From NCBI GenBank assembly GCA_050014495.1, contig JBEKDF010000021.1:1-49177 (forward strand): 49,177 bases of DNA. Reading direction: 5' to 3'. Position numbers and translations under genes: made by a program. The notes beneath the pieces were generated by a model. The model was not told the origin of the DNA, did not search any database, and worked only from the letters and a program-made list of their open reading frames with translations. The DNA is from Candidatus Bathyarchaeia archaeon. GTDB lineage: Archaea > Thermoproteota > Bathyarchaeia > TCS64. Position 1 is the first letter of the stretch. Each line of letters begins with the position of its first letter. Positions 31,424 to 47,990 of this stretch are shown in pieces.

Positions 31424-31909
31424 TTGTCAGCAAAAGCACAGATACTAAAAGAACTCGCGGAGTACCACTTCAACTCGTTGGAGGAGACCCTAAAGGGACT
31501 CGACGAGAAGGAGGCAAGCTACAAACCAACAGAGGAGTCCAATAACATCGAGTGGATAGTTAATCACCTCTGCAGAATAAGTAACACAGCCATCCCGCGT
31601 ATACTCAAGGGAGACCCAAATTACAAGCCTATGGGGTGGCCCGATGACTATAAGGACAGGTCCTACAGCCTAACGAAGTATATGGAGGATCTCGCGACTG
31701 GTAAGAAGATTGTCCTCGATGGTATCGGAAAACTCACGGACACCCAGCTCGAGGAGGAGATCCCGCTTTGGGGCGGGACTAAGAAGAGAAAGGTCGGACT
31801 CTTCGCATACATAGGTGAGATAATTCATCACAAGGGGCAGATTGCCTACATTCGAGGAACTGTGAAGCGCTTCAAGGAGAAGGATCCCAACTTCCTCGAC
31901 AATTGCTAA
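31424..31909 (+). CDS. DinB/YfiT-superfamily protein (candidate thiol S-transferase), paralog 1
   Basis: The track labels it minus, but the translation reads on + (TTG CAA GAT CAA at 31322, TAA ending 31909). Motifs NNIEWIVNHL and EIIHHKGQI; GGTGA RBS before TTG 31424. Confidence 0.8.
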   Translation: MSAKAQILKELAEYHFNSLEETLKGLDEKEASYKPTEESNNIEWIVNHLCRISNTAIPRILKGDPNYKPMGWPDDYKDRSYSLTKYMEDLATGKKIVLDGIGKLTDTQLEEEIPLWGGTKKRKVGLFAYIGEIIHHKGQIAYIRGTVKRFKEKDPNFLDNC

Positions 31910-32290
31910 ATGGTGTCTGAAACGTGCATAAATACGTAGTAATATCTAATGTTTTCTTTAGAAGATTGTTATAATATCTAAAAACCTTTAGTGATAAAAC
32001 AATTTGATCTTAAGAATTCACCTGCTCCAAACGGATACGACCAAATTACTCTTCAATACCGATAATATCAGTAAGTTTAAGCTCTTTTACCAAACAGACC
32101 GATATTTCTGCCCGAATGGATACTGATATACTGATCACGCGGGTATAGGCCAGAAGAATACGTTAGGGAAAAAGGGATTAGTTAATGAATCTTACAGATA
32201 AAAATGCGCGCGCGGGGGGTTCATCCAGGCTCTTAATACCTACGCATATCGGGGGAGGAAGCAGTTGAATGAATATAGTAGACATATAAC

Positions 32291-32674
32291 CTAAGTGAGT
32301 GAAATCGGGTAAGTGAACAAAGCAAGCGCAACGACTTCAATAAATAGAAATACGCCACACAAGACAAATGCGAGAAAACTCCTCTCAGCAGTCGGCGATT
32401 CCTCTTCATCCTTCACACCACCCGAAGGTCGCCTAAAGTAAGAGGTAATAGCCGAAGCCCACTTCTCGGTCCACGTAAACTGGTTAGCACTTCCGAAGAG
32501 CAAAGCGATAAAAGCCTCAACGCCTGTGATGTCGCCAAAATATCCGTTTATCTCGCTGATTGAGAGACCTCTAGGGAAAAAAGTCGATAAAATTACGCTA
32601 AAGATAACGGTGATAACGTTCAAGATAATTGTGAGTCGAATGGATCTTATTATTATCTGCTTTACAGTAAGCAA
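32291..32674 (-). CDS. Small membrane protein (about 3 TM)
   Basis: Three hydrophobic segments; 6 nt downstream of the preceding membrane gene. Confidence 0.6.
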   Translation of the reverse strand: MLTVKQIIIRSIRLTIILNVITVIFSVILSTFFPRGLSISEINGYFGDITGVEAFIALLFGSANQFTWTEKWASAITSYFRRPSGGVKDEEESPTAERSFLAFVLCGVFLFIEVVALALFTYPISLT

Positions 32675-32680
32675 ATTACT

Positions 32681-33784
32681 TCACTTCGTGCTCGCGCTTA
32701 AATTGGAAGCTTTGTGAGAAGCGGGGTAACATAGAGAAAAGTCCTGAACACCATCCGAGGTAATTGTTGACCGTGACTTTGAAACTTTAATCTCCGGAGT
32801 ATCGTGGACGTTCTCCCCGATTTTGAATCTCATGGGTAATAACGCGGCAACTATTATCCCAAGGTATAGAGCGTAGTTCAATATTGCGAAAATGTTCCAT
32901 GAAAACAGGGCACTTAAATTCCCATTTAGAATGAAACGTCCTAGACCAAGAGAGGACAGTGCCCAGAGAACGATTATGCCGCGAACGTATTTAGGCAAAG
33001 ACAATTCGATGCTATGGGTTCTTCGCAGATTACGATATACCCTGAAACAGAAAATGCCAGCGACCAGATAGACGAACGTATCAAGAAATTGGCCCGTTAC
33101 AAGACCAATGTTCACCAGGTTCTCCCAATCTGGAAAAATGAAAATTTGCTGTGTCGATCTCATGATTGAAATTGGTCGCAGAAAGATCATCCATGGAAGT
33201 ACCATAGAGGCGACGAACACTACTGATAGAAGTATGAACATATTCCTGCTGAGCACGTTCCTGTTAGACAGTAGTTTATAGGCCATATAGAGTAAGAAGA
33301 TCGCCTGGACGATGCCGAGCAGTCCCAGACTATACCACCAATCTAGTACGTACATTCCCCAATCGGTGAGGATGTTCGTTAACCCAACGGGTAAGAGGAG
33401 CCAGTACATGGCCTCTGTGATGAGTAGTGCGGAGAGTTCTATCCTGTGTCTCCTCAGGATTCTTCTTGAGACGATGAAGTCGGCGAGCAATACGATTAGT
33501 ATCGCTGCTGATGCAGCTTGGGCTACGAGTGTGAGAAGATACCCAATGAGCTGAGGGTCGGTTAAACCGAGGGAGAGGAGTAGCCTGACCTGGCTCAGAT
33601 TGGAGGGGATCTGTATTTGGCTGGCATATAGGTTGATGGCTCCCCATGCTCCTAGGAGGGTCAGTATGGCCACTTTGCCGATTGTTGAGAGGGATGTTAG
33701 GGGATTCGGTGTTGTCTGCGGTGTGTTAGAATTGTACCTCGGGCACCATCCGAAGTATGTGTTGAGGATCTCGAAGAAGATCAT
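32681..33784 (-). CDS. Polytopic membrane protein with N-terminal GWCP motif (DUF1673-like N-terminus)
   Basis: YFGWCP at the N-terminus, many hydrophobic helices; TAATG overlap with the upstream HTH gene. Confidence 0.7.
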   Translation of the reverse strand: MIFFEILNTYFGWCPRYNSNTPQTTPNPLTSLSTIGKVAILTLLGAWGAINLYASQIQIPSNLSQVRLLLSLGLTDPQLIGYLLTLVAQAASAAILIVLLADFIVSRRILRRHRIELSALLITEAMYWLLLPVGLTNILTDWGMYVLDWWYSLGLLGIVQAIFLLYMAYKLLSNRNVLSRNMFILLSVVFVASMVLPWMIFLRPISIMRSTQQIFIFPDWENLVNIGLVTGQFLDTFVYLVAGIFCFRVYRNLRRTHSIELSLPKYVRGIIVLWALSSLGLGRFILNGNLSALFSWNIFAILNYALYLGIIVAALLPMRFKIGENVHDTPEIKVSKSRSTITSDGVQDFSLCYPASHKASNLSASTK

Positions 33785-34248
33785 TAACCCAACTCCGGTA
33801 TTAGTCTTGAGAAAATGATGTGCGCAAGTTTCGACGGCGAAAACGCTCTCTGTTCCAAGCTGATCTCGACGTCCCTCTCCTTCGCCTCGTCGATTAAGCG
33901 CTCAGTGCAACGTTTGGCATATCTACAATCACCGCAGTTGGGCTCCTCAAAGTGCCATGTCTGGATACCATGCTTTCGTGAGAACGTTATTATCACTTTG
34001 CTCGAGTCTATCGGCATCTGACCGAGAAGTATGCCATTCTTCGTGTCTACCCTGATGATCTCTATCGAGCTTGCATCAGCAGTCTGCCTGAGTGCAGCAT
34101 CAACCTTCACCATCGAGATCTTCAGAGCATCGTAGACCGCCTGCCTAGTGAAACCAAACCGTTCACCTATCTTGGATCGTGGCTCGTCTCTCCGGTTCAT
34201 ATCCCATATGTCGAGCTGTCGGCTTGTCAGATAGGCAGAGGATATCAT
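33784..34248 (-). CDS. HTH DNA-binding protein (sigma-70 region-4-like) with C-terminal Cys cluster
   Basis: LTSRQLDIW...SKIGERFGFTRQAVY HTH; WH...CGDC-x5-C. Confidence 0.75.
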   Translation of the reverse strand: MISSAYLTSRQLDIWDMNRRDEPRSKIGERFGFTRQAVYDALKISMVKVDAALRQTADASSIEIIRVDTKNGILLGQMPIDSSKVIITFSRKHGIQTWHFEEPNCGDCRYAKRCTERLIDEAKERDVEISLEQRAFSPSKLAHIIFSRLIPELG

Positions 34249-34464
34249 AAAGTTCTACGTGAATATAACGTGTAAAGTATAAAGACTTTACTAAATAATG
34301 ATTCTGCGTGCGAAGACCCCTGTGTCCACCCTTGCCAGTTGTTTCTGTAAGAGAATACATGTGAAAAAATAAATGCGCGTATATTTCCATTAATATTGTA
34401 TACACAATAACTTACTCTGTTTACAATAAATAGAAATTGTATACACAGAGTTAAGTGCCATATT

Positions 34465-35127
34465 ATGAGATTAAATATTGATGAAAATAATTTGAAGCGA
34501 TTAATCATCATCGCCACCTTCTTATTCATCATAACAGCCTGTACTTTGACCGCTTTCCTTCCCTCTACTCATGCTCAGCTAGCTCCAGCTACTAATTCGA
34601 CAGTGGCTGCCCAAACCGGTTCGCCTACGCAACTATCCCTAAGGTACATAGAATTTTCCTCCGACATATTCTTCGTTGGGGAACCCATCACGATGCGTGT
34701 GGGGCCGATAAGGTCTAACCAGACTGGGGAATACAGTGCTACAGCTGTAATCACGCCTCAGATAGGAGGTGTTGAGCCCTTCTACGAGAGCTATGCCTTA
34801 TACAGTGCAGACTCAAACTGGTTTACCTTCAATTTCGTTTTGGGGGAAGCGGGTAACTACTTAATCACGGTCTGGCAGGGCGGCGTAAAGCAGCTGACCC
34901 GCGAGATATCCGTGTATCCACTCTCATCTACATCTACCGGTGGGGGTCCCGCTAATCCTGATACGTCTGTTGAGATTGCGCGAACTGCTGCGGAGGCGGC
35001 TGGGGCGGCCCAGGCACAATCAGAGTCCCCAGGAATTTCATCTCAAATAGACGTCCAATGGGTCTTCATCCTGTTAATCATAGTCGCAAGCTCAATCTGG
35101 TTTCTAAACACAATAGTCAAAAGTTAG
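34465..35127 (+). CDS. Secreted/membrane-anchored hypothetical protein
   Basis: Signal-like N-terminus (..THA/Q), beta-rich middle, Ser/Thr/Ala linker, C-terminal TM helix. Confidence 0.65.
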   Translation: MRLNIDENNLKRLIIIATFLFIITACTLTAFLPSTHAQLAPATNSTVAAQTGSPTQLSLRYIEFSSDIFFVGEPITMRVGPIRSNQTGEYSATAVITPQIGGVEPFYESYALYSADSNWFTFNFVLGEAGNYLITVWQGGVKQLTREISVYPLSSTSTGGGPANPDTSVEIARTAAEAAGAAQAQSESPGISSQIDVQWVFILLIIVASSIWFLNTIVKS

Positions 35128-35421
35128 AAAACAACTTCGTGCGCTGGGTAATCAACTAGAATGGGATAGCGCACCGACCAGACCAGCCTGAGCCTCACTG
35201 GCGCGATCGTATGCGCGCGCATTGTGAATATTCTGGGGAGTTTACTGGGATTCTGACCCGTAGTCGGCGAAGACTTACTCCCCAGAGGGACGCGCGCGCC
35301 CGTGATACTGGCTGTAAAACGATAAGATCAATCAATCGAGTTCACGAGTAGCACTCAGGTGGAACCGAGGATAAGGCTATGGCCCCAAACCCAAAATACA
35401 TCTTTAATATTAAAGTAAACT

Positions 35422-35595
35422 ATGGGTCTAGGCAGAACTTTCTTAGGCATATTATTATGCCTATTTGGACTCCTTTTTTTATTTAATGGCCTATTTAGTG
35501 GTTTTACCATGAATTATGTTACAGGGCTAATACTCGGAGTGATTGTGATGGCTGGTGGAATTAGATTGATTAAAAGTAGCAAAAATGCAGATTGA
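35422..35595 (+). CDS. 57-aa two-TM small membrane protein (below the track cutoff)
   Basis: MGLGRTFLGILLCLFGLLFLFNGLFSGFTMNYVTGLILGVIVMAGGIRLIKSSKNAD; AT-rich TTTAATATTAAA element just upstream. Confidence 0.5.
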   Translation: MGLGRTFLGILLCLFGLLFLFNGLFSGFTMNYVTGLILGVIVMAGGIRLIKSSKNAD

Positions 35596-36534
35596 ACATT
35601 CACTCGGCTGCCTCCTGTCCTGATGTGCCTAGGTTTTAAGAGGCTGAACTAAACCGTGATGCTTTGAGGTTGGGTTTACTCTCACCCTGAGCCTCATCTG
35701 ATGAGGCGGTGATATTGGCGCATAAAGAGGTAGGGTGGAGCGAGGGTGAGGCCGTGAGGCCCCACGACATCTACGCGTGCTATAATTGCGAGTTGAATAA
35801 AATCACCCCTTGTAGATATCTGAGGCGTGCTAAATACATGAGCAACCTAGACCAATGGACTAAATGCCCACGCATGAAGTAGCGCATATTCACATATCCC
35901 GTGTTGGGTAATGCTTCTTAGTCCCGCGAACGTCCTTCAATGCATCTCGTAGTTTATTGTCCCGCTTCTCGGATTCGGTAAATAGCCTGTAACCCTTCTT
36001 CTCCTCTTTCATCTTCATTGACTTGTCTACTCCACTAATCTACTTGGGAAGCGGGGTTAAAGAACCCCAAAATCCCTAATATATACGGTATGCACGTGCA
36101 CGGGCTCCCATCCTCATGAGGTAAAGTGGAAACACTGTCCAATGTTCATAATTATGAAAATCTTCGAATCTTCCCCTGTCAGGTTTCAGATACTCTGAAA
36201 AACTAAAGGACCATTTTCACCCGCTGCTCCTCTTAGGTCCTGAACCTATAATAGCCACGCACGCGTAGATATCATGAAAGAGTGAATTGAAAGTATGCCC
36301 ACGAATAGAATGACGAAGAAGAAGGATCATGATAGAAAAGCCCATAAGAAGGAATTGAAGGGGGATAGGCTCCGACGCGCGCCCAAAAAGATCGAAGATG
36401 CCCCGATAAAAGCTTAATTTTTTAAGGATCACATTTTAAACCGTTATGCGCGCGCACAACCGCCAAATGTCCTAGCTCATGTAGTGGTATAAGCAGGATG
36501 AAGAGGGCGAAGTATCCCAGCCACCACATTCGGC

Positions 36535-37249
36535 TCATGCATTCACCGCCTGATCTCTGAGTAGTTCAGCGAGCTTTTTCTGACGAGCTTGGTATTGTGA
36601 TAGGTCGAAGTTCACTGGGACATGGACGGGCTCGCTTAAGTCCTCAACCGGAACCAATGGGCGTGACTCTACAATCATCTCGCGGATGGACTCAATCCAC
36701 TTAGCTTGTTCAGATTGTAGTACTTGGATAAACTGGTCGTGGTCGGTCTTGATCTGGCCTCTGACCTCTTCAAGCTCATTTTCCAGTTTATCTGTCCTGA
36801 CAGTCATGCTTCGAATAACTATATCCATGTCATTGTTCTGCTTCTCGACTTTCTCTCTAAGATCAATGACTGTCCTGCTGCCCTTATGGATGCTCAAGAA
36901 CTTCTCTGCGTACTGGAGCTCTTCTTCGACCTGCCTTCGACTGAGATGCTTTCTTCTGTGACTCTAGGTAGTTTCGGAAAGAGGTGAGATCTGAGAGGTA
37001 GTCCCTGCTCTCTGTCAGGTATCTAACGCTGGCCTCTTGTAGCACTTCTTCAACCTCCTCGGTGTAATCTAGATACTTCTTGCCATTCCTCAACCGTTCA
37101 AGTTCAGGGTATATGAAAATGAGGTAGGATGTAAGTGCAGTTCGGTAGGTGAGTAAAGAGTTTCTCTTATAGTGTGAGAGATATTTATTGTAGCCTATAA
37201 CCACATCATTTGTCTTGACCGAATTATCATAATGTGCCTGAGTGGTCAT
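36535..37249 (-). pseudogene. Probable tyrosine integrase remnant: N-terminal SAM-like domain joined out of frame to the post-catalytic helix and coiled-coil tail, catalytic core absent
   Basis: ORF 36884-37249 has S..TYRTAL..YL..I and DL..F..YL patterns; the alternative frame reads RQVEEELQYAEKFLSI into a coiled coil; no R-K-HxxR-H-Y residues. Confidence 0.55.
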
Positions 37250-37357
37250 ATATTAATGAGATTTGGAGCAGATATAAATATTATCTAAAGAAAGATTTTT
37301 TTAGGTAGTATTATATATTCATTAAAACTGATTTTAGAGTGGAATTCTGGTGGTTAG

Positions 37358-37816
37358 ATGACAGTAAAGACGAAGATGATAAAGGACTTTGCACAAATCG
37401 GGTTCGATAGACTCGGTGGCGCCACAAAAAACCTCACGCCCGAGCAGCTAGATTGGAAGAGTTGCACTCAGGCCAATACGATTAGGTGGATACTCACCCA
37501 CTTGAGTGAGGAGCTGAATGTTTCTCTCCCAAAGTTCTTGGGTGTAGAGCAGCCGAAAGATTGGCCTAAGGATTACGTTGGTAACCCTAAGTACAAAATG
37601 GAGAAAATCATGGCCGACATCGAGAAGGGTCATAGGAAGCTAAACGCCGGTCTCAACAAGCTGACGAACGACAAGCTCGATGAGCCTGTGGAGGCTTGGG
37701 CGGGAAAGAAGCCGCGCGAGTTCTATGTGATGCTCATGGTAAGTGAGATCGTTCACCATGAGGGACAGATAGCTGCCATCCTCGGCGTGGAAAAGAGGAT
37801 AAAGGGTACAAAGTAA
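37358..37816 (+). CDS. DinB/YfiT-superfamily protein (candidate bacillithiol S-transferase), paralog 2
   Basis: LTPEQLDWK, NTIRWILTHL, EIVHHEGQI; directly upstream of bshA. Confidence 0.8.
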   Translation: MTVKTKMIKDFAQIGFDRLGGATKNLTPEQLDWKSCTQANTIRWILTHLSEELNVSLPKFLGVEQPKDWPKDYVGNPKYKMEKIMADIEKGHRKLNAGLNKLTNDKLDEPVEAWAGKKPREFYVMLMVSEIVHHEGQIAAILGVEKRIKGTK

Positions 37817-37873
37817 TCGTTTACACTTTTATTCTACCTTTCTAAACACCCTATCTGTTGGGGGTTTACTTAC

Positions 37874-38989
37874 ATGAAGATTGGAATAAGTTGTTATCCT
37901 GGAGTCGGCGGTAGTGGTATACTCGCAACACGCCTTGGTGTTGAGTTCGCCAAGCGGGGCCACGATGTCCATTTCATAACATATGAGCGCCCATTTGCTG
38001 TCCAAGGGATAGATCAGGAGAACGTCCATGTTCATCTAGTCAACGTTCTTGAATACCCTCTTTTCAAGTACCCCCCGTATACGGTAGCCCTAGGATCTGA
38101 AATGGCAAGGGTGTCAGAAAATGAAAATTTAGATGTTCTCAACGTCCACTACGCTATCCCTCATGCAACGGCAGCCTTTCTTGCTCGAGAAATAACCGGG
38201 GTACCCTATGTGGTCACTCTTCACGGAAGCGACGTAACGATACTCGGGAGCGACCCGAGCTACAAGATCGTTAACAATTACAGCGTAGAGAAAGCTGATG
38301 CTGTCACAGCAGTTTCAAAGTTCATGCAGAGGGAGGCGTATGAGAGGTTAGGTATCGAGCGGGGGGTTGATGTAATACCGAATTTCGTCGACACTGAAAC
38401 CTTTACCCCGGCTCCTTGCGAGTCGGTCGAGGTTAATGATAGCGAGTGCGGTGGCATTATTCATGTGAGCAATTTTCGACCTGTGAAGCGTGTGACTGAT
38501 CTTGTTTACGCGATGGCGATAGTGACGAAGGATGAACCCAACGCTAAACTTACGCTTGTAGGTGATGGTCCCGACAGGCATAATGTCGAGAAATTAATAG
38601 ATACTCTTGGGCTCCATAGAAATGTTATTCTTACTGGGTTTAGGAGCGACATACCAAACTTAATGCGCTGTAGCGACATCGGTGTCCTCTGCTCCGAGAC
38701 TGAGAGTGCTCCACTGACTCTTCTCGAAGGGATGAGCACGGGGCTTCCCATGATTGCAACAAAGGTCGGTGGCGTTCTAGAGATCGTTGAGGATGGTGAG
38801 AACGGGCTTCTCGTGCCACCGAGACACCCTGAGGAGATCGCCAAAGCAATCCTTCGCCTCATAAGAGATCCAAAGCTTAGGCGCGATCTTGGCGAGAGGG
38901 CCCGTAAGATCGTGCTAGAGAGATACACTGCGGAGAAGGTCGTCAATCAGTACATCGAGATATTCGAAAAGGTTATGCGAAAACCCTAA
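37874..38989 (+). CDS. bshA: N-acetyl-alpha-D-glucosaminyl L-malate synthase (GT4)
   Basis: MKIGISCYPGVGGSG..AT.LG, YPLFKYPPY..AL, VHYAIPHA, TLHGSDVT, HVSNFRPVKRV are BshA-specific signatures rather than generic GT4 motifs. Confidence 0.9.
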   Translation: MKIGISCYPGVGGSGILATRLGVEFAKRGHDVHFITYERPFAVQGIDQENVHVHLVNVLEYPLFKYPPYTVALGSEMARVSENENLDVLNVHYAIPHATAAFLAREITGVPYVVTLHGSDVTILGSDPSYKIVNNYSVEKADAVTAVSKFMQREAYERLGIERGVDVIPNFVDTETFTPAPCESVEVNDSECGGIIHVSNFRPVKRVTDLVYAMAIVTKDEPNAKLTLVGDGPDRHNVEKLIDTLGLHRNVILTGFRSDIPNLMRCSDIGVLCSETESAPLTLLEGMSTGLPMIATKVGGVLEIVEDGENGLLVPPRHPEEIAKAILRLIRDPKLRRDLGERARKIVLERYTAEKVVNQYIEIFEKVMRKP

Positions 38990-39052
38990 ATAACTTAGAG
39001 GTCGCGCGCGCTACGCTCGCATGAAAGTGGACGAAAGTCTTATTCTCATTTC

Positions 39053-39928
39053 ATGCCAACACACATACTTGATGATATCATGGCTAATGTGAAAACGGTG
39101 CAAAGCCTATGCTTCTCCCCAACCGACACAACACGAAACATCCTATCAATCATTGAAACGAACATAGGCCTACCCCAAGCCACTAAAATCGACGTGACAC
39201 TCCCTCATCAAAGAGATTCCTTTAATGGAAAAGTCCAGGGAGACCTCCTCCTAGTAGGGTCACCGGTATATGAGGGATCAATACCATGGCCCATGATGGA
39301 GCCACTTAGACGAATTGAGGGAGAGGGTAAATACGCGGTATCTGTTGCTGTCTACGGTAACCGCTCCCCTGAAACCTGTGTGGAGGAGATGACTAAACTT
39401 CTGAGGAAGAGGGGATTCAAGATACCGGCGGCCGCATCTTTCATAGCCGAACACTCTTTCGCGAGGGAGAGAGTCCGGTGGGGCTTTGGAAGGCCGGATC
39501 AACATGAACTGGAGATCGCGGCGAGGTTCGGTGAACAGATCAGGAGGAAGATATCCTCGGATCCATCGGAGATCCAGATCTCGGGGCTTCTGAATAACCA
39601 CTTCAGCAATGAGAAGGTTGAGAGCTTACCCGATGGCTATCATAAGAAGGTTTTAGGTAATGTGAGGGGGCTCATGCGGGTTGAGTTCTCGAAGGAGGTG
39701 GAATGCACGGATTGTGGGAGATGTGCTGATGTTTGTCCGACTGGTGCTGTGAAGGTGGATTCTCGGGAGGTTGATGATGGGTTGTGTATACGGTGTACTG
39801 CTTGTATTCGTGCTTGTTCGGGGGGTGTTCTAGGGGCTCAGGTTGATGATACCCCGGGTTCTCGTGAGAGGCTTGAGAGGATTGATAAATTATTCACTGT
39901 CCGCAGGGAACCCATTATCTATATCTGA
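39053..39928 (+). CDS. Flavodoxin-like plus 2x[4Fe-4S] ferredoxin fusion (EFR1-like)
   Basis: FSPTDTT, GSPVY, VYGNR, AASFIAEHS; CxxCxxCxxxCP and CxxCxxCxxxC. Confidence 0.85.
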   Translation: MPTHILDDIMANVKTVQSLCFSPTDTTRNILSIIETNIGLPQATKIDVTLPHQRDSFNGKVQGDLLLVGSPVYEGSIPWPMMEPLRRIEGEGKYAVSVAVYGNRSPETCVEEMTKLLRKRGFKIPAAASFIAEHSFARERVRWGFGRPDQHELEIAARFGEQIRRKISSDPSEIQISGLLNNHFSNEKVESLPDGYHKKVLGNVRGLMRVEFSKEVECTDCGRCADVCPTGAVKVDSREVDDGLCIRCTACIRACSGGVLGAQVDDTPGSRERLERIDKLFTVRREPIIYI

Positions 39929-40224
39929 TAAGCGAAATGTGTGCGAGCTACGTTTACGCGCGCGATTTCGTATCGGAAATTGTGGAATACCCCCACAGCT
40001 GCGGAGTACGTTGAGTATCTCTACGGTGTGGTTCCCGAGATTTGGAGGCAGCAGCACCCGGGGTACGAGAAGATGACCTTATCTCAATTGTCTTATCCTC
40101 AGCTCTACCTGATATTCAACGATTCATGAATAGTTCTAAGCATGATCCCCTCGTACGGTGACTCAATTAATTACAGTAAGTGTTATACATACTGATGATT
40201 AGTTTCTGTTTCAGGTGAACAAAC

Positions 40225-40638
40225 TTGAAGGATGGCGCTAAGTTCCTGGTAGCATACGACGGCTCCGAGTACTCGAATAGGGCGTTGAGCGAGGCAGCGG
40301 ATCTCGCCAAGAAGTTCAACGGATCAGTCACTCTGCTCCACGTCTCCTGGGATGATCAGGTGAAGAAGCTTGAGGGAACCGAGATTCGTGATCAGCCGAC
40401 GATGCAGCTGCTGGCAGATGCTGAGAAGAGCCTCAAGGCCTTGAATGTCAAGTATGATGTGAGGAGTGAGAGGAGTAATGATCCGCCGTACGTTATCTTG
40501 AAGACGGCTAAGGATGAGGGCTTTGACTGCATCGCTATGGGTAGTAGGGGGAGGGGTGGGGCGAAGGCTTGGATACTTGGCTCTGTGTCGAGTAGGGTCG
40601 TCGCTGAGTCGTCGTGCCCAGTGATCGTGGTAAAGTAA
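40225..40638 (+). CDS. Universal stress protein
   Basis: LVAYDGSEYS, MGSRGRG....LGSVS..V...CPVIVVK. Confidence 0.92.
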   Translation: MKDGAKFLVAYDGSEYSNRALSEAADLAKKFNGSVTLLHVSWDDQVKKLEGTEIRDQPTMQLLADAEKSLKALNVKYDVRSERSNDPPYVILKTAKDEGFDCIAMGSRGRGGAKAWILGSVSSRVVAESSCPVIVVK

Positions 40639-40654
40639 CTTATTTTCCCACATG

Positions 40655-40671
40655 GCCTTATCCTCACTTCC
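40655..40671 (+). repeat. Dispersed intergenic repeat GCCTTATCCTCACTTCC; identical copy at 48845-48861, related reverse copy at 35361-35380
   Basis: Direct sequence comparison. Confidence 0.75.
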
Positions 40672-40754
40672 ACTTGACTGTGCGCGAACGCGATTAGGGC
40701 AGCTGGTAACACTTTTAATAACCCCAACTTGATACTCGACCAAGGAATACCACT

Positions 40755-41534
40755 TTGCTATACTACACAGAGTCGGGCCCCTCCGACGCCCCCATGATCC
40801 TCTTCCTCCCCGGCGGCGGTATGAGTGGTTGGACATGGCTCCCACAAGTCACGAGACTCCTAGACTACCACTGCATAGTACCCGACCTACCAGGACATGG
40901 AGGGAGCCACGCTGACGGCCCCATAAAAATAGGCACAGCAGCCGAGGAGGTAGCCGAACTCATCAGAAGTAGGGTCACCTCAGGCCGAGTTCACGTCGTC
41001 GGCCTCTCCATGGGGGGCCAGACGGCCTTACAGCTCCTGAGCACACACCCGGAACTTGTAGACCGAACAATCGTAAGCGGAACCAACGTATCGCCAAACA
41101 ACGGTATACGGCTCCTATCCCCCTTTCTGAAGCTCTTGATGATCCTCTACAGTCCACTCCAGAATACAGATTACATGATCCGCGCCAACATGAGGCAAAT
41201 CAAAGTCCCGCCTGAATACGAGGCTGATTTCAGGAATGATACCAGGCTCATGACACCCGACTTCTATACTCAGGTAGTCGTTGAAAGTATGACCTACTCG
41301 TTGCCTTCTGTTGCCGATGCTTCTAGGCTACTCGTAGCTTGCGGTGAGAATGAGCCAGAGTTGATCAAAAAGTCTGCTCGTATGATACGTGGAAAATATC
41401 CTAGAGTACCCTGCTTTGTCGCCCCAGGTACAGGCCACAACTGGGGCATGGAGAAGCCTGATCTCTTCGCTGACATGATCCGGTCGTGGATTGAGCGGAC
41501 ACCCTTGCCGGGAGAGCTACTTCAACTACCCTGA
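40755..41534 (+). CDS. Alpha/beta hydrolase
   Basis: PDLPGHG, GLSMGG nucleophile elbow, GH near the C-terminus. Confidence 0.88.
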   Translation: MLYYTESGPSDAPMILFLPGGGMSGWTWLPQVTRLLDYHCIVPDLPGHGGSHADGPIKIGTAAEEVAELIRSRVTSGRVHVVGLSMGGQTALQLLSTHPELVDRTIVSGTNVSPNNGIRLLSPFLKLLMILYSPLQNTDYMIRANMRQIKVPPEYEADFRNDTRLMTPDFYTQVVVESMTYSLPSVADASRLLVACGENEPELIKKSARMIRGKYPRVPCFVAPGTGHNWGMEKPDLFADMIRSWIERTPLPGELLQLP

Positions 41535-41598
41535 ACATCGGAGAAGAAACCCAGAGTCATATTCTCACTTTCACCTGAATATAATGCATGCGCTAAGA

Positions 41599-43338
41599 TT
41601 AGAGGTTGACGAAGAAGATCGTGGAGTTAGGCGTCCAACCCCCATATAGTCTCCTGTATATCTCAACGTTCTCCCCGATGCCCGAGACGGATGCCAAATC
41701 GATCCATAACCAGCTGACCTCCTGCCCATACTTCTCGGGAGCGAAGTGTCCGAAAGAGTAAGATAGGTAATTATCCAGCTGTTGAACCATAATCTGCTTC
41801 GTCTTCATCTCCTGCATTAGAGTCGATCTGGTCGAGGGTTCCCCAAGCTTTCCTTTAATGACGTCAATCTCAGACTCGACCTCCGTCTTCACATTAATCA
41901 ACTCCGTGTAAGTCTCATCAATAACTTTCCTGATGAGGGCATGTGCCTGCGCGATACTCTCAACATTGTTAGCCTTTTTTGCTTCCACCCACTTCGCTAT
42001 GGCCTCGAATAACTCCCTTCGAGATAGGGTATTGAAACCATTCGCCTCAACACTTTTACCCGCAACCTCATTCCAAGGGGTGTTATAGAAGACTCTGGCA
42101 TAGCGAGTGTACATCGGAAACGGTATTTCGAGCCTCGAAACCCCGGGGATAACCTCTGCGTAGTAACCTGTCTCCCCCGGTCCACCAACATGTGAAACAA
42201 CGGGGATAACGGAGTCAACGACCACCTGACGTGAGTCGACTCTTGGAGTTATTATTTTTGCAATCTCCTCAATGTCCGGCTTATCCGCTGAGAATGAGTA
42301 ACTGTATTCCTGTTCGCATCTCTGGCACTTACCCCCCACGCTAGCGGTGGAGCCTGATCCAGCCCTGTACTTTAACTCAATCCTGCTCCCATGGCAGCTC
42401 GGTGTCTGGCACTCAAGGAAAAAAGGCACATAGTCGTCGGACCTTTTCCCTATCTGTGCTCTATAACCAAGTCTCTCGATGAGGTCGACGGCATCATTAG
42501 ATGCATGAACGAAGTTACTACGGTTTGGTTCAGATAGAAGTATCTCGTATCCGTGCTTAAAGGAACCCCTGATAGTCGGATCTGTAGCTGATAACATCGG
42601 AACCCCTAAGTTTGCTTCGAGGTTTACAATTGTACCTAAAATCTTCGTTGAAAAGTCAGCTACGTTATTCGTCGAATAGTAGGCTCCCTTGAGGATTGTG
42701 AAGATGTGGGAAAGGTTTTGAATTACCTTTTCTTGCTTCGCTGGCTCCACACCCTTGAGAAGGCCACGGTAGTTGCTTTCTATCTTTTCGAGTGTTTTTC
42801 TGAGCCACTCTTCATCCGGGTTAGGTAATCGGCGTATCGGTGCCCCATCGTACCCCGGCGGAGATGGGTAGGTGATTAACATTCCTTTCGCTGAGGGGCT
42901 CGGTATTCGGATGTTAAGTAGCTCCGCTTGGACACTGTCATAGTCCCCGACGTAGTAAAGTGGAACATATTTTCCTTCCAGACCAGCAAGGATCGAAACA
43001 TAGGTTATCTTATTAAAGATGAAGCTGGGTCCTCCAAGGCAGTTAGGTTGTTGTCCTGTTTCGACCGAACCTCTATCTAGTGAGTCGATATGCTTCGAGA
43101 CTTTAGAGGTGAGAATACCCAACTCCCTCATCTGGTTTTTGATAGCCTTCTTCAGTCCCTCAAGCTCATCTGGCATTACACCATAATTCGCTCTTATATG
43201 TCCAAAATACCCATGGCACTCTGCCATATTATAGGGAATCTTACCCCAGAGACGTGTAGCATATTCGCCACTAGGTTCTTTTTCCGTGTACTTTTGATAC
43301 AATATTTGTACTGGGGGAATAACACTCATTCTATTCAC
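41599..43338 (-). CDS. bshC: Bacillithiol biosynthesis BshC-like protein (putative cysteine-adding enzyme)
   Basis: TGQQP...GGP.F...K, YYVGDYD, VGGPGE..Y motifs, C-terminal coiled coil; GTGA overlap with the upstream PIG-L gene. Confidence 0.8.
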   Translation of the reverse strand: MNRMSVIPPVQILYQKYTEKEPSGEYATRLWGKIPYNMAECHGYFGHIRANYGVMPDELEGLKKAIKNQMRELGILTSKVSKHIDSLDRGSVETGQQPNCLGGPSFIFNKITYVSILAGLEGKYVPLYYVGDYDSVQAELLNIRIPSPSAKGMLITYPSPPGYDGAPIRRLPNPDEEWLRKTLEKIESNYRGLLKGVEPAKQEKVIQNLSHIFTILKGAYYSTNNVADFSTKILGTIVNLEANLGVPMLSATDPTIRGSFKHGYEILLSEPNRSNFVHASNDAVDLIERLGYRAQIGKRSDDYVPFFLECQTPSCHGSRIELKYRAGSGSTASVGGKCQRCEQEYSYSFSADKPDIEEIAKIITPRVDSRQVVVDSVIPVVSHVGGPGETGYYAEVIPGVSRLEIPFPMYTRYARVFYNTPWNEVAGKSVEANGFNTLSRRELFEAIAKWVEAKKANNVESIAQAHALIRKVIDETYTELINVKTEVESEIDVIKGKLGEPSTRSTLMQEMKTKQIMVQQLDNYLSYSFGHFAPEKYGQEVSWLWIDLASVSGIGENVEIYRRLYGGWTPNSTIFFVNL

Positions 43339-43988
43339 CTTAGTAGATTCTTAGTTGTCTTCACTTCGTAGAATGGCCCATTTTTTTTCAGCGACTCTTC
43401 CTCGAAGGCTTCTGCGTAGACGCAGTTCGCCTGGGTTCCTCTAAATTTAGCCTTTTGATCGTTAAATCTTTGATAATATCCCCATGGGAACTTTGCCAAC
43501 TGGGAATTGTAAGCCTCCACCGCGGCTTTCTTCCTTACCATCGTTTCGGAGACGTCGACTAAGATTTTGGGGTCGGGGATCAATGTGTTTACCTCCATGA
43601 GTAGTAAACGTTCTACGAGGCAGGGTTTCTCATATGTGGTCGTATGAGCTGCCCACTCAATCGCCTCTTTTACGACATTGTAGGTCGTTCTATGGTCGGC
43701 GTGGTAGTCGAACGGAAGGTGAGTTATGACTATGTTTGGCTTCGCTATCACAATAACGTCAGCAACCTTCTTGACTAATTCACCTGAATGGACTAAGTTG
43801 CTCTCCATGAAGACTATTGGCTCCATAAGCCCAAGTGATTTACATGCATTCTCGAGCTCCTCTCTGCGGTCCCTTGGGTTACATGTTAGACACAAAACCC
43901 TCGACGCCTCTGCATGCAGCGCAAGAGTTCCGCCACAACCGAATGTCTCATCATCGGGGTGGGAGACAATAGCAAGAATTACGCCCAT
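43335..43988 (-). CDS. bshB: PIG-L/LmbE family deacetylase, BshB-like
   Basis: HPDDE..GCGGTL, R.EE..A...LG, HADH, K..A...Y.SQ, YAEAF; coupled to bshC. Start set at ATG 43988 (track start is 44066). Confidence 0.75.
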   Translation of the reverse strand: MGVILAIVSHPDDETFGCGGTLALHAEASRVLCLTCNPRDRREELENACKSLGLMEPIVFMESNLVHSGELVKKVADVIVIAKPNIVITHLPFDYHADHRTTYNVVKEAIEWAAHTTTYEKPCLVERLLLMEVNTLIPDPKILVDVSETMVRKKAAVEAYNSQLAKFPWGYYQRFNDQKAKFRGTQANCVYAEAFEEESLKKNGPFYEVKTTKNLLR

Positions 43989-44166
43989 AGAGTTCAAACG
44001 AGTAGGGATAACAAGGAATAAAAGGGGTTCCCCGAAGACATCTATTACTTTTTTGTACATATCCAAATTATTAGATTATGTGCACACTGAAGATGCATTA
44101 GATATTAAGCGCGCGTACCTACATCACGAAAATAATTTCTCTAAGAACTAACAGATACAAGTCAAC

Positions 44167-45051
44167 TTGGCTTCAATGGTACCGGTCGCTACATCAAGCG
44201 GAGTTACAATTTACTGCCCCATCGATGGGAGATATGCCTTTTACAATAGCCCGTATCCAGCACATCACCTGATGAGTGGTATTGACATATATCCTAACCC
44301 GATAATCAATGAACCAATGCCATCTCCAATCGATGGCAAGGTACTTCTTGTAAGATATGTAAAAGCGCCATCCGGGCACGGCTTTGAGGCGCCCAAATTC
44401 GATGTTGTAACAATAATTAAGAGCATTATAGACCCAAAAAGTGTCATCAAGATTCTTCATGTCGAAACAAAGGCTAAGGAAGGAGAATCTGTCGCCTTAG
44501 GGGAGGCTCTAGGTCCTCTCATTCGCTCTGGGTACTTTGGATATCAGACGCCGCTTCACGCTCACGTTGAGGTTAGACCTGTAGGAGACCCATTACGAGT
44601 TCGGGGAGGATATCCTATCGATAGCCTATTTTATTTAAATGATCTCGATTTGACCGAAGAAATTACAGGAGTTGTGACCTCCTCTCGATTGGGATACGCA
44701 CTGATCAAGTTGAATCTAACGACCCCAGGGGTTGTTGCCGATATAGGTGGTATACCAGGAATACTTGATGGCGGGATGCCAATTTATGGTTGGTTCGGTG
44801 CACATCTGAAGAACCCAAAAAAGAATACACCTGTCAAATTGCTCGGAAAAAAAATAGGAAACGTGACTGACATACGACCTAGGACCTGCGTCGCTGATTG
44901 CACTGACTTCGAGTTGATGATCGAGTCCACGCACGTCGATGCATTCTTCATATTTCTCCCCGGCGGAGAACCCACCCTTGCAATAACATCTAGAAAACTT
45001 GGCGAACTCGACCTCGATGTGAACTCTGAGGTCTCCCTGATGGTAAGGTAA
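44167..45051 (+). CDS. Hypothetical protein with peptidase M23/LytM-like fold
   Basis: NSPYPAH...GIDIY, SPIDGKV, LHV, HAHVEVR. Confidence 0.55.
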   Translation: MASMVPVATSSGVTIYCPIDGRYAFYNSPYPAHHLMSGIDIYPNPIINEPMPSPIDGKVLLVRYVKAPSGHGFEAPKFDVVTIIKSIIDPKSVIKILHVETKAKEGESVALGEALGPLIRSGYFGYQTPLHAHVEVRPVGDPLRVRGGYPIDSLFYLNDLDLTEEITGVVTSSRLGYALIKLNLTTPGVVADIGGIPGILDGGMPIYGWFGAHLKNPKKNTPVKLLGKKIGNVTDIRPRTCVADCTDFELMIESTHVDAFFIFLPGGEPTLAITSRKLGELDLDVNSEVSLMVR

Positions 45052-45107
45052 GCCGCCACGCCCAATAGATATAAGGGGAAGGGCGCAACCTAAACAGACG
45101 AATCCAG

Positions 45108-45473
45108 ATGTCTGACATTAGTCAGTTCCCCCCGAACGTTCAGGAGAGAATCGCACGTCTCCAACAATTACAAAACACAATGCAGCAACTTCAGGCTCAG
45201 AAGCAAAGGCTCGATGCTGAGAAATCTGAGACCGAAAGGGCGCTGACGACCCTTAACGAGACACCCGAAGGCGTCAAAGTATACAAGTCTGTTGGCGCAG
45301 TGCTAGTAGAGAAAGATAAGGCAACAGTCGTCAAGGAACTCGCTGAGCGGAAGGATTTTCTCGAAATGAGAGAAAAAGTTCTAGAGAAGCAGGAAGAAAA
45401 GGCTAAAGAGAAACTCCAGGGTTTACAGGAGACACTGCAGAGGGAGCTTGGCCTCCCACAGAAGCAGGATTAA
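45108..45473 (+). CDS. pfdB: Prefoldin beta subunit
   Basis: PP.VQ..I..LQQLQ, VYKSVGAVLV hairpin between coiled coils. Confidence 0.93.
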   Translation: MSDISQFPPNVQERIARLQQLQNTMQQLQAQKQRLDAEKSETERALTTLNETPEGVKVYKSVGAVLVEKDKATVVKELAERKDFLEMREKVLEKQEEKAKEKLQGLQETLQRELGLPQKQD

Positions 45474-45771
45474 CTTTAATTAATCTACTGAACTCTGTTT
45501 GCCTCTTTTCGATCTTCTGAGTTTTCTCACTCCTCGGAGTTTGAAGAAGCCAAATCCAAGTTTAAACAATTTATTCATCATCCCCAACCGTATTAATGGA
45601 GTAAGTATAATCGATACTCGCGTACTGTCATTTCTAAAATATAGCTAGATTTTATATAGCCTATTAAGTGCGAGCATGGTTATTTTTCAGTTATTGCTTG
45701 AAGTGGATTTAAAATGAATCTTCCTCATCCAAGAAGTCGATTATGTAGAGGTTAATCCGCTTTAATACATC

Positions 45772-47015: not shown

Positions 47016-47990
47016 TTGAACGATTGGATGAAGGAATCTAGAAACCCAAAACACAGACCAACACTCAAAGACTTCCGTGAAGCCGCATCTAGAATAGAGG
47101 GTATCTCACTACACACACCCCTACTACCATTAAGATGGTACAAGGAAGAGGACACACAGATACTCCTCAAACCCGAGATGCTACAATCCGTAGGCAGCTA
47201 CAAGATCAGAGGAGTCTACAACTGGGCAGCACAGATACCAGCAAAAGAGAGGAGAAAGGGGCTTTCAACACTCAGCGCGGGAAACATGTCGCAGGCGCTG
47301 GGATACGTGGCAAACATGTTCGGAGTCCCAGCTAGGGCAATAATGCCTGACTACGCACCCAAGTCAAAGATAGAGGCAAGCAGAAAATACGGGATAGAGG
47401 TCCAGTTGATGCCACTGGATGGGCTAATCCGATACGTCAATAATCCTCCCAGCGACTACTGCTTCCTTCACCCACTAGCCGACTTCGGATTACTGGATGG
47501 GCATGGAACCATCGGGGTTGAGGTGATGGAGGATGCCCCTGAGACGGATACCATCTATGTTCCCTTGGGGATGGGCTTCCTATCTTCTGGTGTTGCTCTC
47601 GCGGCTAAGGCGTTGAAACCCTCCGTCCGCGTCATCGGGGTTAACGCTGAGTACTCGCCGCACTTCTACGAGAGTCTTAGACAGGGCAGGGTAGTTACGA
47701 TTTAGCATAGAGATACTATCGCTGATGCAATCAACGACTCGGTTTCCGAAGACACGTTGAGGCTGGTGAGGGAGACGCTGGATGATGTGGTGCTCGTTTC
47801 TGATGAGGAGATTGAGAAGGCTATCCGTTTTCTTGCACTTGAGAATAAGTTAGTTGCTGAGGGTGCTGGTGCGATTGGTTTGGCAGCGGCTCTGGCTACT
47901 CCGAAGGAGAATCGTGGCAAGAGTGTGTGCGTTCTCTCGGGTGGAAGCATTGACGGTGAGAGGCTTGCACACATCCTTGTTACTGCGTAG
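47016..47990 (+). pseudogene. Threonine/serine dehydratase-like PLP enzyme interrupted by in-frame TAG (47703-47705)
   Basis: TPL, LKPEMLQ..GSYKIRG, SAGN; after the TAG the same frame continues HRDTIAD...VSDEEI...EGAGA...SGGSID. Confidence 0.8.

Follow-up and report, generated by a model that had tools for sequence, protein, structure and literature searches.

Does an archaeon of the class Bathyarchaeia make bacillithiol, or a relative of it? The question is raised by a 49,177-nucleotide contig of Candidatus Bathyarchaeia archaeon (JBEKDF010000021.1, assembly GCA_050014495.1), referred to here in its full length as the window. It encodes a BshA-type glycosyltransferase, a PIG-L deacetylase resembling BshB, a ligase resembling BshC and proteins of the DinB superfamily. 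A sequence-only reading of this DNA had proposed that the organism makes "BSH or a BSH variant, with its own transferases". The open reading frames (ORFs) on which it relied (DinB, bshA, flavodoxin, USP, hydrolase, BshC-like and PIG-L) all lie at the positions given, and the GTGA overlap of the bshB-like and bshC-like genes is present in the sequence. The bsh-like genes are real, native and inherited. The cluster is best read as the bacillithiol pathway in an inherited, archaeal form, and its product is likely to be cysteinyl-galactosaminyl-malate, the C4 epimer of bacillithiol; judged from the sequences, the probability of this reading is put at about 0.45. The earlier proposal is sustained as an inference, with the qualification that only BshA reaches its family cut-off and that the substitutions observed favour a variant.

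The glycosyltransferase and its donor motif

The bshA product scores 396.3 bits on TIGR03999, 123 above the cut-off of 273.7, and the next family reaches 164.9; its identification as BshA in the sequence-only reading is confirmed, no other GT4 family being a better match. It aligns with the Bacillus BshA structures in the PDB with an E-value of 3e-94. The residues H117, N170, VSN198-200, K205, E277 and E285 are conserved. Four of the five residues whose mutation kills the S. aureus enzyme are thereby kept (equivalents of H118, K209, E280 and E288) and the fifth, Thr120, is replaced by Ser (Ser119 of the window protein). The window BshA shares 102 of the 150 columns that are invariant among three named bacterial BshA.

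Two motifs set the archaeal protein apart from bacterial BshA. The LHGTD segment reads LHGSD, with Ser for Thr in all archaeal copies, and the EX7E motif reads ESAP (residues 277-280) instead of ESFG, the bacterial GlcNAc-binding motif; the codon of Pro280 is at 38711-38713. The position was compared in BshA sequences in which the motif is covered, 4 of 80 metagenomic loci being too short. Proline is found at EX7E+3 in 46 of 46 loci of the Bathyarchaeia group (one of them on an 8-kb contig titled as bacterial), 17 of 17 of the Thorarchaeia group and 29 of the 30 top loci of an Asgard sample (30 of 66 matching genomes). The archaeal total is 92 prolines in 93 copies, with at least two genomes counted twice as the Asgard and Thorarchaeia sets overlap. 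Glycine occupies the position in all 79 bacterial sequences (76 metagenomic and three named, none with proline) and in the B. anthracis and B. subtilis BshA structures. The archaeal motifs vary around the fixed residue (ESAP, ENAP, ESTP, EGAP, EGMP), which argues for selection on the proline.

The BshA of one Asgard locus (L238, G328:C20) reads ESFG, forms a long branch among bacteria and lies beside a canonical-type bshC; this pair may represent a separate acquisition or contamination. The other 29 of the 30 Asgard loci have archaeal-type bshC and bshB within ~1.5 kb of bshA. The Pro-type BshA thus travels with divergent B and C enzymes, and the ESFG copy with a canonical one. In an unrooted FastTree phylogeny of 71 BshA rows the Bathyarchaeia form a clade (99) beside one Asgard subclade (95), a position compatible with transfer of bsh genes from Asgard to Bathyarchaeia.

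A clue to the role of the proline comes from the capsule polymerases of Neisseria meningitidis W and Y, which have Pro310 and Gly310 at the same EX7E position. As described in the accessible part of PMC10361700, the ESFG glycine of BshA aligns to Pro310 of the W polymerase and the exchange P310G turns its donor from UDP-Gal to UDP-Glc, the reasoning being that the glycine NH bonds the C3 and C4 hydroxyls of glucose. In PDB alignments the GalNAc transferase PglA (8DVZ) reads EGFP at the motif, Alr3699 EPFG and 5I45 EGFG. Proline thus goes with galacto donors in the W polymerase and PglA, enzymes whose acceptors are unrelated to that of BshA. In the archaeal enzyme Pro280 would leave no backbone NH to recognise the gluco C3/C4 hydroxyls, and its donor is accordingly predicted to be UDP-GalNAc. 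No paper among the top-ranked literature matches, which leave most subscription journals uncovered, describes the archaeal BshA proline or a galactosamine bacillithiol.

The deacetylase and the ligase

The PIG-L protein belongs to PF02585 (71.2 against a cut-off of 28.2) and scores under both BshB cut-offs (TIGR04001, 76.7 against 182.5; TIGR04000, 66 against 195.25), so its earlier assignment to BshB is borne out by the family and the metal site and not at the equivalog level. The LmbE/PIG-L zinc deacetylase site is present, with H10-P-D12-D13 and H99 supplying the metal ligands and the base, R41 (equivalent to Arg53) and H96-x-D98 (equivalent to His110 and Asp112); H96 and D98 vary in relatives. 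Unlike bacterial BshB, the protein is without a 7-residue loop and has Tyr95 in place of Arg109 of the Bacillus enzyme, as do 25 of 25 aligned sequences. Among the residue roles given for BshB in the available part of PMC4101496, Arg109 is a substrate contact from docking.

The BshC-like protein passes PF10079 (55.6, cut-off 27) and remains under the canonical cut-off (TIGR03998, 62.1 against 265.8). Its AlphaFold model (pLDDT 93.4, 100 sequences) matches the structure 4WBD with a Foldseek E-value of 9.7e-21 and a Z-score of 32.5 over 478 aligned residues (root mean square deviation, rmsd, 3.6), and shares with canonical BshC the full-length fold including the C-terminal QE motif. An archaeal profile compared by hhalign with 34 canonical BshC gives a probability of 100% (E 3.5e-44, 491 columns); in the PDB, a single-sequence phmmer search reaches 4WBD at only E 0.61 and a profile search at E 7.5e-11. 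Homologs were sought among 1.84 billion representatives, the best 150 of 2755 matches being seen and 84 scored. A quick-mode tree of 78 rows (canonical set thinned to 18 of 35, midpoint root, SH-aLRT support) resolves three groups, namely canonical BshC (100), an archaeal clade including the window protein (99) and an HQPN clade (100). Ten clusters of the archaeal clade were looked up, and the four with taxon names are Ranarchaeia, Promethearchaeota and, twice, Heimdallarchaeota. The naming of the 579-residue protein as BshC is supported in domain and fold, with the reservation of the missed cut-off and the separate clade; as between a recent transfer and an archaeal clade, which the sequence-only reading had set out as the alternatives, the phylogeny gives the latter.

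Of the 38 columns that at least 88% of canonical BshC have in common, the window protein keeps 25, and it matches 14 of the 15 invariant ones. At the 70% level the archaeal clade keeps 19 of the 38 and the HQPN (glycan-cluster) clade 9. GGPGE..Y, K110, D134, E139 and Q539-E540 are retained in the window clade and mostly missing from the HQPN clade. The EDHD of canonical BshC is replaced by YDSV in the window protein (YDxV in the archaeal form), and an insert with four cysteines (C310, C315, C338 and C341; Cys4), which do not vary in alignments of 100 and of 42 sequences, is common to the HQPN clade and not found in canonical BshC. At one locus (L152, 6442-8758, G139:C31) a PIG-L gene and a 571-residue protein of the HQPN clade are followed by GT2, oxidoreductase, GT2, GT4 and methyltransferase genes, with no bshA; this cluster is a possible glycan amino-acylation system.

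Class I lysyl-tRNA synthetase (LysRS; 1IRX) is the second-best structural match both of the archaeal model (Z 19.9, 298 aligned, rmsd 3.3) and of the bacterial control model P0253 (Z 22.2, 290 aligned, rmsd 3.5). Cysteinyl-tRNA synthetase (CysRS) and MshC match BshC-type models only at Z ~11-12 or less. Class I LysRS also has four cysteines at the place aligned with those of the archaeal form; the profile-profile match is not significant (E 0.23) and the alignment ends at 1IRX residue 319. With the bacterial control scoring as high and the profile match at this level, the idea of archaeal BshC as a special intermediate towards class I LysRS is not supported. Class I LysRS activates its amino acid only with tRNA. 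A tRNA requirement is therefore a lead for the BshC reaction, albeit a speculative and rather doubtful one. According to the accessible text of PMC5790435, that reaction has not been reconstituted even in bacteria. The likeness of BshC and LysRS is described in no paper among the top-ranked literature matches; the BshC structure papers, outside this comparison, may mention it.

Neighbouring genes, precursors and recycling

The synteny survey of Bathyarchaeia and Asgard that the sequence-only reading had suggested finds the cluster recurring in relatives. Among 77 related loci, many of which end at contig edges, bshA is present in 66, bshB in 60, an Amidohydro_2 gene in 39, DinB1 in 34 and DinB2 in 32. 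In the 63 loci where the arrangement of bshA and bshC could be measured, the two genes stand tail-to-tail within -22 to +4 nt in 25, enclose a single WCGDC Thioredoxin_9 gene in 20 and are co-directional in 17 (Thorarchaeia-type); one is frameshifted.

The DinB gene reported directly before bshA is a DinB_2 match, and a second cluster DinB lies outside the region considered at that time. The DinB1 triad H48, E130 and H134 is kept in 62 of 62 aligned DinBs and is nearer to the two-His-plus-Asp site of MST than to the three-His site of BstA/YfiT; with the NCBIfam profiles, DinB1 reaches no BstA or other transferase equivalog. The genome has eight DinB homologs in all, and a second DinB1 copy, 87.5% identical, is found on a small contig (G000:C62:4474-4929). 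Elsewhere in the genome are three homologs of the cluster thioredoxin (51-66%) and a homolog of the cluster amidohydrolase (65-78%), which stands beside another DinB in divergent orientation.

CysRS and GlmU pass their cut-offs in the genome. Malate could come from malic enzyme, a class I fumarase-type subunit or two Ldh_2 enzymes. As these other routes are present, the missing PF00056 malate dehydrogenase was set aside as a weak sign of another aglycone.

Proposed product and alternatives

In the first step of the proposed pathway BshA would move a HexNAc from a UDP-sugar, predicted to be UDP-GalNAc, to L-malate with retention. The zinc deacetylase, whose metal ligands are seen, would then free the amine, and the BshC-fold ligase, with its fold and core residues, would add cysteine. 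The neighbourhood suggests that the two DinB proteins may conjugate the thiol to electrophiles and that the WCGDC thioredoxin-fold protein and the amidohydrolase of the relatives' clusters may recycle mixed disulfides and conjugates. A cysteine thiol is supported by the DinB and thioredoxin neighbours and by the retention of 25 of the 38 canonical BshC columns, of which the glycan-cluster clade has 9. The fixed substitutions in all three enzymes, sharpest in the Gly to Pro change of BshA, favour a variant over bacillithiol itself; the divergence of BshB and BshC is such as a changed substrate would call for.

A number of observations weigh against the galactosamine product. The Pro/Gly rule has a single published switch and a single PDB example behind it, and the specificity of glycosyltransferases is not predictable from sequence alone according to the available part of PMC10653937. 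The 92 prolines may be a single event since the archaeal copies form one clade, and the bacterial sample is biased, with 80 kept of the 583 best matches to one Bacteroidota sequence. The 77 related loci have no conserved 4-epimerase gene in the cluster; the Thorarchaeia loci have a PGM/PMM-family mutase beside bshB instead, and the three NAD-dependent epimerase/dehydratases (PF01370) in the genome are at most candidates for action on UDP-GlcNAc. The Tyr in place of the substrate-docked Arg109 and the replacement of EDHD by YDSV, which leaves the cysteine specificity not assured, count in the same direction, as do two results of the profile searches: there is no PF00056 malate dehydrogenase in the genome, and in this 96% complete genome the best YpdA/Bdr disulfide reductase match has 64.3 bits against a cut-off of 339.9.

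The product could be unaltered bacillithiol (Cys-GlcN-L-malate); the proline, like the other substitutions, would then be lineage drift that left the donor choice unchanged. The position of BshA above its equivalog cut-off, its 102 kept columns and the 14 matching invariant columns of BshC would be expected of such a pathway; GlmU is in the genome, and the window protein retains Ser278 of the motif, a residue said to touch the acetyl group. It is nevertheless considered rather unlikely, because a glycine present in 79 of 79 bacterial BshA is replaced in 92 of 93 archaeal copies and BshB and BshC miss their family cut-offs.

Less likely again is a cysteinyl-aminosugar thiol, with any sugar, that carries another hydroxy-acid aglycone (e.g. 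tartrate, lactate or sulfolactate) or a further modification. The Ser of LHG(T/S)D in all archaeal copies and the Tyr of BshB speak for it, the GGSG, YPPY, HYAIPH and SNFRxVKRV segments common to bacterial BshA and the other malate routes against it. PF00056 malate dehydrogenase, lacking here, reaches its cut-off in no more than 21 of the 51 genomes of the family, and the amidohydrolase, whose role is unassigned, recurs in 39 of the 77 loci; both would fit a different aglycone.

It is improbable that the ligase adds a residue other than cysteine to give a non-thiol product such as an osmolyte or a glycan building block. The retention of the core residues that the glycan-cluster clade mostly lacks and the conserved tandem DinB genes and CxxC thioredoxin argue otherwise, although the EDHD is not kept and the Cys4 insert is shared with that third BshC-fold clade, one member of which stands with PIG-L in a glycan cluster without bshA.

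Archaeal origin of the segment

The host genome is 3.1 Mb in size and 96% complete with a contamination estimate of 7.5%. Archaeal GluRS, uS2, L7Ae, IPK and prefoldin beta on the contig pass their cut-offs and flank the cluster on both sides. The close homologs bear the titles Bathyarchaeota or Bathyarchaeia, and the best-matching sequencing runs are peat metagenomes, with no RNA run among those listed. Of 24 further genomes of the family, 20 have a BshC-like gene and 18 have BshA, always above cut-off; neither is found in 16 genomes outside the family. In a class-wide sample of 200 Bathyarchaeia genomes, each at least 80% complete, the BshC-like profile matches 44 of 50 genomes in the family and one of 150 elsewhere, weakly (E 1.9e-15). 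The family orthologs are 50-82% identical, and the cluster is syntenic with prefoldin beta and DHH in relatives. A BshA above cut-off is also encoded by 62 of the 151 genomes that were sampled in the phylum to which a Thorarchaeia genome belongs (Asgard).

The GC content of the segment is 0.47-0.49 against 0.493 for the genome, and its tetranucleotide correlation is 0.73 (median 0.68 for random 3.5-kb pieces). Independent contigs were compared from 4 of 24 listed runs. Run X5, which carries no flag as a possible source, has contigs identical in every letter to 35956-38736, 40033-41908 and 41881-45600 apart from one 3-nt gap; they bridge DinB1-bshA, the insert-bshC junction and bshC-bshB-prefoldin beta, and no single contig covers the whole stretch. 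A misbinned, chimeric or recently transferred bacterial fragment, for which the 7.5% contamination estimate and four short related contigs with bacterial titles might speak and which the sequence-only reading had allowed for, is rejected as extremely improbable by the family distribution, the synteny, the GC content, the bridging contigs and the BshA and BshC trees, which put the sequences among archaeal ones.

Organisation of the locus and its insertions

Table 1. Genes and other features of the bsh-like locus in the window
Feature	Position	Strand	Basis or remarks
DinB1, DinB/YfiT-superfamily putative S-transferase	37358-37816	+	PF12867 (DinB_2) 48.1, cut-off 24.8
bshA, GT4 glycosyltransferase, 371 aa, archaeal type	37874-38989	+	TIGR03999; PDB BshA match; residue mapping
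EFR1-like flavodoxin/4Fe-4S (flavodoxin-ferredoxin)	39053-39928	+	inside insertion
USP	40225-40638	+	inside insertion
alpha/beta hydrolase	40755-41534	+	inside insertion
bshC-like amino-acid ligase (putative), 579 aa, archaeal clade	41599-43338	-	PF10079; AF2 fold; hhalign; tree
bshB-like PIG-L/LmbE Zn deacetylase, 217 aa from ATG 43988	43335-43988	-	PF02585; best PDB matches 6P2T, 2IXD
DinB2, second cluster transferase (putative)	31424-31909	+	89% identity to tandem DinB2 of relative genome G012; MST/DinB_2 Pfam matches
Insertion between convergent bshA and bshC 3' ends	39003-41598	+	in none of 63 related loci with both genes
8-bp direct repeat TTAGAGGT, left copy	38995-39002	+	right copy 41599-41606, overlaps bshC stop
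Second insertion, DinB2 to DinB1, ends approximate	31910-37300	not assigned	multicopy accessory genes and one 26-nt repeat

The bshB-like start given in Table 1 suits the relatives (217-225 aa) better than the TTG at 44066 of the ORF finder. Many BshC homologs have 576 residues, so the true start of the bshC-like gene may be an ATG three codons past the GTG.

The flavodoxin-ferredoxin, USP and hydrolase genes, reported to lie in between, do not belong to the pathway. Between bshA and bshC they are found in 0 of 63 related loci; EFR1 and USP occur in none of the 77, and the hydrolase has only 21-24% matches elsewhere in 8 Thorarchaeia-type loci. G012 has a single copy of the 8-bp repeat, where its bshA and bshC ends overlap, and in the window a copy of a 26-nt genome-wide repeat follows each of the three genes (40087, 40652 and 41553). 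Their absence from related loci and the repeat-bounded insertion rule them out as pathway members: they are accessory cargo of an insertion seen only in this genome. The cluster does extend over the ~6.6 kb reported, a length due to this insertion only. DinB2 and DinB1, adjacent in relatives, are 5.4 kb apart here, displaced by the second insertion.

The 26-nt repeat is non-palindromic and has further window copies at 35355-35380 (-) and 48842 (+), those within the first insertion being on the + strand. The genome holds 172 copies (up to 5 mismatches) against 0 for 5 shuffled patterns, in co-oriented arrays with ~0.6 kb spacing. For 101 of these, the offset from a stop on the same strand is -15 to 60 nt (17 on average at random). 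One membrane-protein family, with the start MVD and mostly 17-22 nt past the repeat, makes up 54 of 98 proteins of the repeat units. The repeat is found in 11 of 17 genus genomes and 0 of 23 others. (GC)n tracts occur at the insertion ends and internal joints (approximately 39003-39011, 39957-39964, 35213-35219, 35291-35299, 36376-36381 and 36448-36455), and in a contig of run X13 that skips 39071-40158 the joint has CGCGCGC. Two unannotated ORFs (36535-37249) with paralogs on contigs C56 and C14 occupy the right end of the 5.4-kb insertion, and short AT-rich inverted repeats seem present at the ends of this insertion.

Two other regions of the window may be recorded. A 294-residue protein (44167-45051) adjoining bshB is conserved within the genus (11 of 77 loci) and has no Pfam or NCBIfam match. 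A threonine dehydratase-like pyridoxal phosphate (PLP) enzyme is apparently split into ORFs of 229 and 77 residues (47016-47705 and 47757-47990).

Relation to known systems and implications

The bacterial bacillithiol system (BshA, BshB1-B2 and BshC with BstA/YfiT) has the same three enzyme families and DinB-superfamily neighbours; its hosts are Bacillota, Bacteroidota, Chlorobiota and Deinococcota (PMC5790435, PMC6282198 and PMC10950700). The archaeal cluster differs from it in the H/E/H triad of DinB, in having no YpdA above cut-off and in Thioredoxin_9 as the clustered redoxin of relatives. The mycothiol pathway (MshA, MshB and MshC) follows the same logic of glycosylation, deacetylation and cysteinylation and has DinB transferases with two His and one acid ligand. 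The window BshA is not of the MshA type (68.7 against a cut-off of 462.5), and unlike MshC, which derives from CysRS, BshC has class I LysRS as its closest aminoacyl-tRNA synthetase (Z 20-22 against 11-12).

The presence of bsh-like genes in archaea is already known, and the sequence-only reading overrated its surprise value. The available portion of PMC7278568 (Rawat and Maupin-Furlow 2020) reports 39 archaeal matches each for BshA and BshC, mostly in Asgard, and bacillithiol as not detected in archaea as of 2020; these are the same families, given there as InterPro counts only, and that portion contains no Bathyarchaeia, bshB, synteny or residue analysis. NCBI names the archaeal homologs "bacillithiol biosynthesis BshC". 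PMC12719100 (Hammerstad et al. 2025), in its accessible part, finds no complete pathway in RefSeq archaea with a filter of 25% identity and 80% coverage, and the word archaea is absent from the main text of PMC6282198 as available. The addition made here is the proline and the galactosamine prediction, by which one fixed residue sharpens "BSH or variant" to a question of the donor sugar.

It is possible, and is put forward tentatively at less than even odds, that Asgard and one Bathyarchaeia family share cysteinyl-galactosaminyl-malate as an undescribed thiol made by co-evolved Pro-type BshA, Tyr-type BshB and Cys4-type BshC, and that it is the main redox buffer of ~40% of Asgard genomes. If true, this would be a new thiol, isobaric with bacillithiol and for that reason easily misidentified by mass alone. 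Archaeal BshC, with its cysteines placed as in class I LysRS, would then be a handle on the BshC reaction, and the likeness to LysRS of archaeal and bacterial models alike is a lead for why BshC resists reconstitution. If the galactosamine reading is wrong, the cluster would instead be the first bacillithiol pathway to function in archaea, and the Pro/Gly rule of GT4 enzymes would have an exception. The choice of thiol in Asgard and Bathyarchaeia matters for understanding redox chemistry in the lineage closest to eukaryotes.

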